Shown piece after piece: positions 30,255-36,949 of a DNA stretch of 64,000 nucleotides (positions are counted from its first letter, which is position 1; each line of letters opens with the position of its first letter). Below the pieces are notes generated by a model that searched no databases, had not been told where the DNA came from, and saw only the letters and a list, made by a program, of their open reading frames with translations. The position numbers were made by a program, and so were the translations under genes. The DNA comes from a virus. The stretch lies in IMG/VR virus record IMGVR_UViG_3300021961_000019; one strand, given 5' to 3'.

Positions 30255-30338
30255 CATCACTCAGTATTAGCTCGCCACCAATTCTTTGTCTGGAAATTGG
30301 AAACCAGGCGGGAGAGAGTCCCATCCGCACCAGGGCAA
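30255..30338 (-). ncRNA. wcaG-type RNA motif
   Basis: Two UGGUG elements, GCGG..GGGA/UCCC..CCGC stem, CCAAUU/AAUUGG hairpin with CUGG/CCAG pseudoknot; upstream of an epimerase gene; family recalled from memory. Confidence 0.75.
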
Positions 30339-30340
30339 GA

Positions 30341-30613
30341 TTATTGTCGTTCCGAGACAAAATTATTAATTGATTCTGCTTGATCAAGCACATCTTCCAA
30401 AGTTGGAAAACTTGGGTAATCCAACTTTACAACATTGTCTGGATCATCATTCCAGACACGTACAGTATCATACTCAATTGAAAACTGATCATTAAGCATT
30501 TCGTATGCTTGCTTGAATACTTCGAATCGAAGTTGATATGGTGTCATAATTTTACTCCTGTGTGTATGTGTGTTTAAAGGGTCATTGACTCCACCAGTTC
30601 TGTTATAGTCCAT
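30341..30613 (-). CDS. conserved T4-like phage hypothetical protein (likely start MTPYQLRFEVF)
   Basis: MTPYxLRxE...FP...A..I..FV pattern. Confidence 0.7.
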   Translation of the reverse strand: MDYNRTGGVNDPLNTHTHRSKIMTPYQLRFEVFKQAYEMLNDQFSIEYDTVRVWNDDPDNVVKLDYPSFPTLEDVLDQAESINNFVSERQ

Positions 30614-35551: not shown

Positions 35552-35599
35552 AGGTTCGGTTTACCGTAACTATGAATTTATTTATTCCCCGGAAGGGGA

Positions 35600-35671
35600 A
35601 GCGGCTGATCGGATTCGAACCGACGACGTTCTGCTTGGAAGGCAGACATTCTACCACTGAATTACAACCGC
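35600..35671 (-). tRNA. tRNA-Gly(TCC)
   Basis: Loop CTTCCAA, U73. Confidence 0.92.
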
Positions 35672-35675
35672 AAAG

Positions 35676-35752
35676 TGGGGGCGGGAGTTGGATTTGAACC
35701 AACGTTCTGCGGCTTATGAGACCGCCGTGATACCTGACTTCACTATCCCGCT
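35676..35752 (-). tRNA. tRNA-Met(CAT), initiator-like; CCA encoded
   Basis: Unpaired A1:C72, GCGGGA acceptor, loop CTCATAA. Confidence 0.75.
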
Positions 35753-35754
35753 AT

Positions 35755-35970
35755 ATTTGGGTGGGTGGTGAGATTCTATCATACTCACAATCAGGAGGTC
35801 GCACTGATAGTAACGTTTCCTGACACTCTCGGACTCCTTGATAGTGGATTCGCATGTCTCTGGTCTCCCAGTCACATGGCGGGCATCACCCCTGTCCTAA
35901 TATACATTATCCCGTGCATGACCGCATAGGATTTTTCTGTCACACCCTTTGGAAATCCGTCGATCTCCAA
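35755..35970 (-). ncRNA. candidate structured ncRNA (about 215 nt) between tRNA-Ala and tRNA-Met
   Basis: At least six hairpins, one GNRA loop and loop-loop complementarity seen by eye; not covered by any credible ORF. Confidence 0.6.
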
Positions 35971-36478: not shown

Positions 36479-36949
36479 CTATCCCATCACATATTCTATC
36501 CATTCAGTTACACCACTTTTCTGAACGTCCAGGTAGACCCTATTAAAAGGTGCTACAGGTTCTTTCTTCAAAGTCATGTTAGTTTCTGACAGAAGTTTGT
36601 TTCCCTTTTTCAAGTTACATTTAGTGCAACAGGCAACTAGGTTTTCCCATGTTTCCCGTCCACCTTTTGAACGTGGAATCACATGATCCAGTGTCAGATC
36701 CTTATCAGATCCACAATACTGGCACTCATGATCATCTCTCTTGTATATTAGAGCTCTTGTTGGATAAGATCCCCTACCCATATGAAAGGGAATATGTACA
36801 TAATTGACCAAACGTATTACTCGCTTGGTGATAAGCCTTGCCTTCTCTTTAAAGAGAAGAACTATAGCTCTCTTCCAATTAGTGAATTGCAATGGTTCAT
36901 ATGAACTGTTCAGAACCAATACTGTTGAATACGGTTCTACTAATTCCAT
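36479..36949 (-). CDS. HNH endonuclease
   Basis: RD...CQYCG...TLDHVIPRSKGG...WENLV..C..CN..KG. Confidence 0.92.
   Translation of the reverse strand: MELVEPYSTVLVLNSSYEPLQFTNWKRAIVLLFKEKARLITKRVIRLVNYVHIPFHMGRGSYPTRALIYKRDDHECQYCGSDKDLTLDHVIPRSKGGRETWENLVACCTKCNLKKGNKLLSETNMTLKKEPVAPFNRVYLDVQKSGVTEWIEYVMG

Follow-up and report, generated by a model that had tools for sequence, protein, structure and literature searches.

Positions 35970-35753 on the minus strand of IMG/VR virus record IMGVR_UViG_3300021961_000019, a 64,000-nucleotide (nt) stretch of viral DNA that we refer to as the window, form a 218-nt gap between the genes for tRNA-Ala(UGC) and tRNA-Met(CAU), within a run of 30 minus-strand tRNA genes. 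The gap is filled by a manA-class RNA. In the order in which they would be transcribed, the features at the locus are:

36078-36050, minus strand: promoter-like site TTGACA-17-TAAAAT, matching 11 of 12 positions in a consensus scan and ending ~8 nt before tRNA-Ala
36041-35971, minus strand: tRNA-Ala(UGC), 65.1 bits, with a G3:U70 pair, discriminator A35971 and no encoded CCA
35970-35753, minus strand: predicted processed manA RNA of 218 nt, from the Rfam match and the fold, its ends placed by the flanking tRNAs
35752-35676, minus strand: tRNA-Met(CAU), 60.7 bits; its 5' end is the expected RNase P cut and hence the manA 3' end
35671-35600, minus strand: tRNA-Gly(UCC), 69.7 bits, the next gene in the run

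On the 5' side the spacer is 0 nt: the bases that follow tRNA-Ala, UUG, already belong to manA, and U35970 is its first paired base. On the 3' side there are 5-10 unpaired nt. Ten nt (ACCCAAAUAU) separate the closing helix of the RNA, which ends at 35763, from the start of tRNA-Met at 35752, and no terminator-like site was found between the two.

The element was identified with the Rfam manA covariance model (RF01745), which matched 35969-35758 on the minus strand with a score of 86.2 bits (E value 1.4e-20 over the 64-kb window); the curated gathering score of the family is 55.2 bits. The match is untruncated, running from model position 1 to 192 of 192, and the score was identical in a 501-nt search. 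The window element is a full-length manA-class RNA of a T4-like cyanophage, and so a member of a family that is already catalogued. A preliminary description, made from the sequence without database searches, had presented it as a novel structured RNA of about 215 nt and had proposed an Rfam scan, for manA especially. The structure described there was confirmed, all of its listed hairpins and its three loop motifs lying where it had placed them, but the novelty fails on the full-model match, manA having been in Rfam since 2010. The family was first described by Weinberg et al. (2010, Genome Biol 11:R31, PMC2864571), who found it in marine metagenomes, in T4-like cyanophages and in two gamma-proteobacteria. 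They classed it as a riboswitch candidate in 5' untranslated regions (UTRs) and marked one feature, with weak support, as 'pseudoknot?'. The manA-II motif of Leptotrichia was also considered and is a different RNA.

The window copy resembles the Rfam family in its nine helices, its conserved junction bases, its T4-like cyanophage host and the presence, as in other cyanophages, of a wcaG RNA nearby. It differs in its low score (86 bits, compared with 160-197 bits for Prochlorococcus-phage copies), in its longer helix 6, and in lying between two tRNAs rather than in a 5' UTR. The extra length of helix 6 accounts for the mismatches that the model alignment shows in it. The host type fits the family: at the DNA level the region matches Synechococcus phages best, the annotated manA relatives S-CREM1, S-B43 and S-H68 are Kyanoviridae, and the surroundings in the window are cyanophage-like, with gnd, peptide deformylase and NUDIX genes and a sugar-nucleotide gene block after the wcaG RNA. 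That RNA (RF01761, 76.2 bits) occupies 30264-30362 on the minus strand, directly upstream of an open reading frame (ORF) at 30201-29143 for an NAD-dependent epimerase / GDP-mannose-dehydratase-like protein, which is the usual association of the wcaG orphan motif.

Homologues were gathered from IMG/VR with degenerate patterns drawn from the conserved core, which yielded ~105 distinct manA sequences, four close relatives of the window copy and 44 loci of its sub-clade; individual loci carry L numbers below. A variant pattern, GGTHGTG, gave three loci, only one of which (L155) is a manA. Three false pattern matches that are not manA (L048, L052 and L104) were excluded, and Rfam confirmed every other locus that was spot-checked. 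A blastn search of the element against isolate phages returned S-CREM1 only. In a tree of 61 representatives the window copy falls into a divergent, low-scoring clade (82-119 bits), referred to here as the sub-clade, together with S-CREM1, L002, L036, L023, L101, L157 and L160; the remaining copies make up the main clade. The isolate S-B43 has a manA whose score lies in the range of the sub-clade and whose tRNA arrangement is the same. Two alignments were used for the analysis of pairing, one of the family (A2, 61 sequences) and one of the sub-clade (A3, 32 sequences).

The minus strand has a minimum free energy of -69.4 kcal/mol (z = -3.1), and none of 200 dinucleotide shuffles folded as well. 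All the helices of the family can form in the window copy, giving a 5' hairpin, a closing stem and two multistem junctions. The helices and their support are as follows:

35970-35949, minus strand: helix 1, the 5'-terminal hairpin UUGGAGAUC-GACG-GAUUUCCAA; 8 of 9 pairs changed on both sides in the sub-clade
35947-35943 with 35767-35763, minus strand: helix 2, GGGUG with CACCC, closing the whole fold; 99% of alignment cells paired, 4 of 5 pairs compensatory
35932-35909, minus strand: helix 3, hairpin AUCCU..UGCG/UGCA..GGGAU, from the fold and the sub-clade alignment
35892-35881, minus strand: helix 5, hairpin GGG-GUGAUG-CCC, whose loop bases UGAU (35888-35885) pair with AUCA of loop 7
35878-35853, minus strand: helix 6, extended hairpin CAUGU..CUGG-GAGA-CCAG..ACAUG with a GNRA loop; 8 of 9 pairs compensatory in the sub-clade
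35848-35835, minus strand: helix 7, hairpin UCC-ACUAUCAA-GGA with the inner ACUAUCA (35845-35839), from the sub-clade alignment
35824-35790, minus strand: helix 8, stem GUCAGGA (35824-35818) with UCCUGAU (35796-35790); 7 of 7 pairs compensatory
35788-35768, minus strand: helix 9, hairpin GUGAG-UAUGAUAGAAU-CUCAC with UGAUAG (35781-35776); 100% of cells paired

All nine helices are conserved with compensatory changes. In the family alignment 89.8% of cells are paired and 37 of 53 pairs show compensatory change; in the sub-clade alignment the corresponding values are 92.1% and 47 of 69. None of 500 shuffles was as good in either case, and shifting the partner columns by 1-3 positions roughly halved the pairing in both. 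The family's junction bases (GUGAC.GAA.AA, UAA.GU, GAA before helix 7 and CC after helix 8) are all kept in the window, and their columns are invariant or nearly so in both alignments, although for GUGAC.GAA.AA and UAA.GU, which belonged to the search pattern, the invariance is partly by construction. A protein-coding reading of the element was rejected, in that only ORFs of 47-54 codons overlap it, some of them entering the tRNAs, and the substitutions follow the pattern of a base-paired RNA.

Beyond the helices, covariation also links loop 5 to loop 7 and loop 8 to loop 9, in two loop-loop pairings. The helix 8 loop holds the outer ACUAUCA (35811-35805), of which CUAUCA pairs with UGAUAG of loop 9. 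The four core pairs of this interaction are at least 92% formed in the family alignment; within the sub-clade the whole helix is 93% formed, with five of its six pairs compensatory. It occurs in many versions, including CUGUA/UACAG, AAUGUA/UACAUU, UUAUGU/ACAUAA, UGUCA/UGACA, GGCU/AGCC, ACAU/AUGU and CUACUA/UAGUAG as well as the CUAUCA/UGAUAG of the window. When the partners were permuted between sequences the mean helix length fell from 5.04 to 4.23, and none of 2000 permutations did as well as the true pairing. The pairing of loop 5 with loop 7 (family consensus UGGU with ACCA, loop 5 being GUG(G/A)UG) is nearly invariant in sequence, with 97-98% of cells paired. The window, L157 and L160 have UGAU with AUCA in its place; their sisters L173 and L188, with outer loops (8 and 9) identical to those of the window, retain UGGU with ACCA. 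Judged from the alignment, this replacement of a G-C by an A-U pair reads as one clean compensatory double change, a single evolutionary event confined to the window lineage. That the loops engage in loop-loop pairing, as first proposed, is thus borne out by two pairings, which relatives form at 93-98%. The inner ACUAUCA loop has its conserved partner in the loop GUGAUG (35889-35884), which the preliminary description had overlooked.

We also considered a T-box-like arrangement, in which loop 5 (UGGU) reads the ACCA 3' end of a tRNA and loop 7 (ACCA) serves as an internal mimic. It was rejected for the window, whose lineage changed the two loops to UGAU and AUCA, unable to pair with a CCA end.

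The preliminary description had instead seen ACUAUCA in two loops and its complement UGAUAG in a third, and had suggested a conformational switch in which loop 9 pairs alternately with either partner. The motifs are indeed present and the competition is thermodynamically possible, both pairings in the window comprising six Watson-Crick pairs with an equal predicted energy of -6.3 kcal/mol. The window and L160 also carry, relative to L157, one further change in loop 7 (AAUAUCA to ACUAUCA), by which the match to loop 9 grows from five to six pairs. What does not hold is conservation. Of 108 family members, just three, which belong to a single lineage, can form five or more base pairs between loop 7 and loop 9. 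Across the family this pairing is present in 24% of cells and within the sub-clade in 55%, the latter a value which 417 of 500 shuffles reach. The closest sisters of the window copy, L173 and L188, share its loops 8 and 9, but their loop 7 is unable to pair with loop 9 (+0.2 kcal/mol). Moreover, the two ACUAUCA loops resemble each other as a result of the compensatory change that kept loops 5 and 7 paired. Each of them has a partner of its own, and they do not form a conserved switch; the cross-match looks like a by-product of compensatory change, and we regard alternate pairing as a very unlikely account of these loops.

The position of the RNA among tRNA genes is shared by its relatives. In 29 of 31 distinct sub-clade sequences the 3' end of a tRNA lies -1 to +2 nt from the first base of manA; the two that depart from this are a locus whose upstream sequence is too short to show a tRNA and one in which 175 nt separate manA from the nearest tRNA upstream. 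A tRNA starts no more than 12 nt after manA in 17 of the 31, and 15 have tRNAs on both sides. The upstream tRNA is of seven types: Arg(UCU) in nine, Gly(UCC) in eight, Ile(UAU) in six, Ala(UGC) in three, and Leu, Asn and Met in one each. Flush tRNA junctions thus run throughout the sub-clade of the window, and because the flush junction is kept in close relatives despite differing neighbour tRNAs, the pattern points to selection on the junction itself. It also provides strong comparative support for the suggestion, made when the RNA was first described, that its position would let tRNA processing release it. A location in the 5' UTR, on which the 'Cis-reg' type of manA is based, does not describe the window copy, which has a tRNA directly on either side, nor the sub-clade as a whole, nor the annotated manA of S-CREM1; this is a feature of context and not of the RNA.

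Two isolate phages illustrate the arrangement. The S-CREM1 manA (OP535465, 10215-10429) is the closest annotated isolate copy by blastn, at 73% identity, and belongs to the same sub-clade. Like the window copy it is sandwiched, in the order tRNA-Leu / manA / tRNA-Asn with spacers of 0-1 nt, and has wcaG upstream. It differs from the window copy in its flanking tRNAs, in having the consensus loop 5 (GUGGUG), and in its loop 7 (GACCU), which forms three pairs and makes cross-pairing with loop 9 impossible. The paper describing S-CREM1 makes no comment on the tRNA context of its manA (Zheng et al. 2023, PMC9964418). In S-B43 the order is tRNA, 1 nt, manA, 1 nt, tRNA. The S-B43 copy (MN018232; L161:2385-2595, 82.5 bits) is unannotated, as are the two tRNAs around it, no RNA genes being listed there; the same stretch is also found in S-B05, RB11-B and S-H68.

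Copies of the main clade begin differently. Of 97 such copies, 95 follow a sigma-70-type promoter with 9 or more of the 12 consensus positions and, in most cases, an intact TTGACA; between its -10 box and the first hairpin of manA there are 0-10 nt. On this sequence evidence, the RNAs of both clades would begin with manA, through initiation in one and through tRNA 3' processing in the other.

The loop pairings can be compared with structures of other manA RNAs. Cryo-electron microscopy of several manA RNAs refolded in vitro has shown that they form pentamer-based closed oligomers (Ren et al., bioRxiv 10.64898/2026.07.01.735769, July 2026). Pentamers, octamers and decamers are reported, along with a single T=1 shell of 60 subunits. 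Intermolecular kissing loops, L5-L7' and L8-L9', hold the pentamer together, and one variant adds an L6-P6' GNRA-receptor contact. The preprint contains no covariation, genomic context or in vivo data. The two covarying loop pairs described above appear to be its L5-L7' and L8-L9' contacts, the loop numbers having been mapped from the 5'-to-3' order of helices and from the GNRA loop (GAGA) on helix 6. With this numbering the window copy shares the loop 5/7 and loop 8/9 interfaces and has, in the GNRA loop of helix 6, a counterpart of L6. The imaged RNAs are other family members assembled in vitro, and only in the window lineage have the two interfaces become cross-compatible (UGAU/AUCA and UGAUAG/CUAUCA).

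These observations suggest the following course of events at the window locus. The manA RNA would be co-transcribed with tRNA-Ala, tRNA-Met and tRNA-Gly, probably from the sigma-70-like candidate promoter at 36078-36050. A cut after discriminator A35971 of the CCA-less tRNA-Ala would be made by RNase Z, or by an equivalent activity at 3' ends, and one at the 5' end of tRNA-Met by RNase P. RNase P cuts at tRNA 5' ends, and cyanobacterial RNase Z is an enzyme that cuts CCA-less precursors after the discriminator. The freed product would be an RNA of ~218 nt, precisely defined at both ends and lacking an expression platform. If its two loop-loop pairings act between molecules, as the behaviour of other manA RNAs leads us to expect, free copies may join into pentamer-based closed oligomers. 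For release of this kind there is a familiar counterpart in T4, whose stable RNAs species 1 and 2 (rnaC and rnaD) are non-tRNA RNAs encoded in the tRNA cluster and freed from a common precursor by tRNA-processing enzymes. We know of no function for them. The likeness is one of mode of release only, a functional analogy for which no homology is claimed. The element is explained in full by manA; unlike the T4 species, manA is larger, forms a family of its own and lies mostly outside tRNA clusters.

The sub-clade manA is built into tRNA arrays rather than fronting a protein gene, and we consider it probable that it is processed into a free and compact RNA, able to pair with its own copies via two kissing loops. 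The alternative, in line with the role first suggested for manA, is a metabolite-sensing leader, riboswitch-like and cis-regulatory, which in the window would control tRNA-Met, tRNA-Gly and a 91-codon ORF at 35551-35276. This is the class to which Weinberg et al. assigned manA, and some sub-clade members do have the order tRNA, manA, ORF (L023 and L101). In the window copy, however, only 5-10 unpaired nt precede tRNA-Met, too few for a terminator or antiterminator, and the stretch contains no ribosome-binding site that could be hidden. An expression platform has no space here, so this copy cannot work as a classical riboswitch. Fifteen of the 31 sub-clade copies likewise lie between two tRNAs, the genes found downstream of manA across the family do not belong to any one pathway, and no manA ligand is reported in the literature that we searched. 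A metabolite-sensing leader is therefore, in our judgement, unlikely here. It might equally be asked whether the RNA has any function of its own at this site, or is a passenger, a manA copy that recombined into a tRNA array and is tolerated there. Cyanophage tRNA arrays are prone to recombination, that of the window contains an HNH endonuclease gene, and the tRNAs flanking manA vary between relatives. Against this, the helices of array-embedded sub-clade copies all keep their pairing through compensatory changes, the family-invariant junction bases are all retained and both loop-loop pairings are maintained, whilst the flush junction persists as the neighbouring tRNA changes, which points to selection on the RNA and its ends. 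Of the explanations considered, a passenger seems to us the least probable, and we give it very little weight.

Extending the reading of manA as a processed, free RNA to the whole family gives a broader and distinctly more tentative proposal: that manA is a free, self-assembling phage RNA whose ends matter and is not primarily an mRNA leader. In the main clade its 5' end might be set by initiation at a consensus early promoter, and in the clade of the window both ends might be set by tRNA processing, which would supply many identical protomers of ~215 nt able to join through kissing loops into pentamer-based shells. Several points weigh against regarding manA as a free, assembling RNA. About half of the sampled main-clade copies lie 8-50 nt before an ORF, as the older cis-regulatory view expects, among them ORFs for gp32, transaldolase, Hsp20, phosphomannomutase and mannose-6-phosphate isomerase. 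Covariation looks the same whether loops pair within a molecule or between molecules and cannot tell the two apart. The cryo-electron microscopy was carried out in vitro (10 mM Mg, annealing at 50 C) on other manA sequences and is reported in a preprint, and the correspondence of loop numbers to those structures depends on our mapping. For the window lineage, the predicted pairing of loop 7 is more stable with loop 9 (-6.3 kcal/mol) than with its conserved partner, loop 5 (-2.4 kcal/mol), so that mis-pairing or a lineage-specific rearrangement of loop 7 is possible on these calculated energies. Lastly, that the RNA is excised, where it ends and how abundant it is are matters that we infer from the genome sequence.

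If the proposal were correct, the copies in tRNA arrays would be the first genomic evidence of RNA cages as a biological form. For 16 years manA has been without a known function and filed as cis-regulatory. A sub-clade flush with tRNAs in 29 of 31 cases and lacking an expression platform, together with a remainder that starts at strong promoters, suggests selection for a defined, free 5' end, and often for a free RNA. The kissing interfaces of the in vitro cages, as mapped here, would moreover owe their lasting complementarity in natural sequences to many independent double changes, which is evidence that these contacts matter in vivo.

The genes that follow main-clade manA are varied. The commonest is that for gp32, the single-stranded DNA-binding protein, found after 18 of ~100 copies (Pfam PF08804, E value 8e-47). 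The gp32 loci include L008-L010, L025, L029, L037, L039, L051, L053-L055 and L070, and gp32 is not among the downstream genes given in the 2010 description of manA. Transaldolase is downstream of ~10 main-clade copies, and others are followed by genes for DUF6561, Hsp20, phosphomannomutase, mannose-6-phosphate isomerase or 2-oxoglutarate-Fe(II) (2OG-Fe(II)) oxygenases, by small ORFs, by terminator-like hairpins, or by tRNA-Asn or tRNA-Gly. This set agrees in part with the list of Weinberg et al. and points to no single ligand.

A further conserved element of ~40 nt, (A)GACC-UAAGAUGCA-ACUC..GAGU-NGGGCAGAU-GGUC(U), usually followed by a U-run, was seen 5-15 nt after main-clade manA at ~20 loci. 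Its inner stem covaries and its internal loops are invariant; a comparison with Rfam gave no match even at an E value of 10. Examples are L018:3488-3535 on the plus strand and the elements at L016, L019, L026, L031, L056, L062, L069, L071, L090, L098, L107, L113 and L119-L121.

Other RNA elements were found near manA in some loci. On the plus strand of L036 (1705-1955) there is a phage transfer-messenger RNA of the cyanobacterial type (RF01851, 116.6 bits), in a 17-tRNA array and ~500 nt upstream of the L036 manA. Two loci carry a glutamine riboswitch aptamer (RF01739) on the plus strand, L061:2333-2381 and L078:4173-4221, at 38 bits, barely over threshold; in each, a manA/tRNA-Asn pair follows a few hundred nt downstream. 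In the window itself, the HNH endonuclease ORF (Pfam HNH_5, E value 1.5e-16) occupies 36479-36949 on the minus strand, inside the tRNA array and ~440 nt upstream of tRNA-Ala. At the other end of the locus, after tRNA-Gly (35560-35600, minus strand), a CCCC-UUCC-GGGG hairpin is followed by a 9-bp AAUUCAUAG/CUAUGAAUU hairpin; both lack a U-run, and they may lie where the transcription unit ends or where its transcript is processed.

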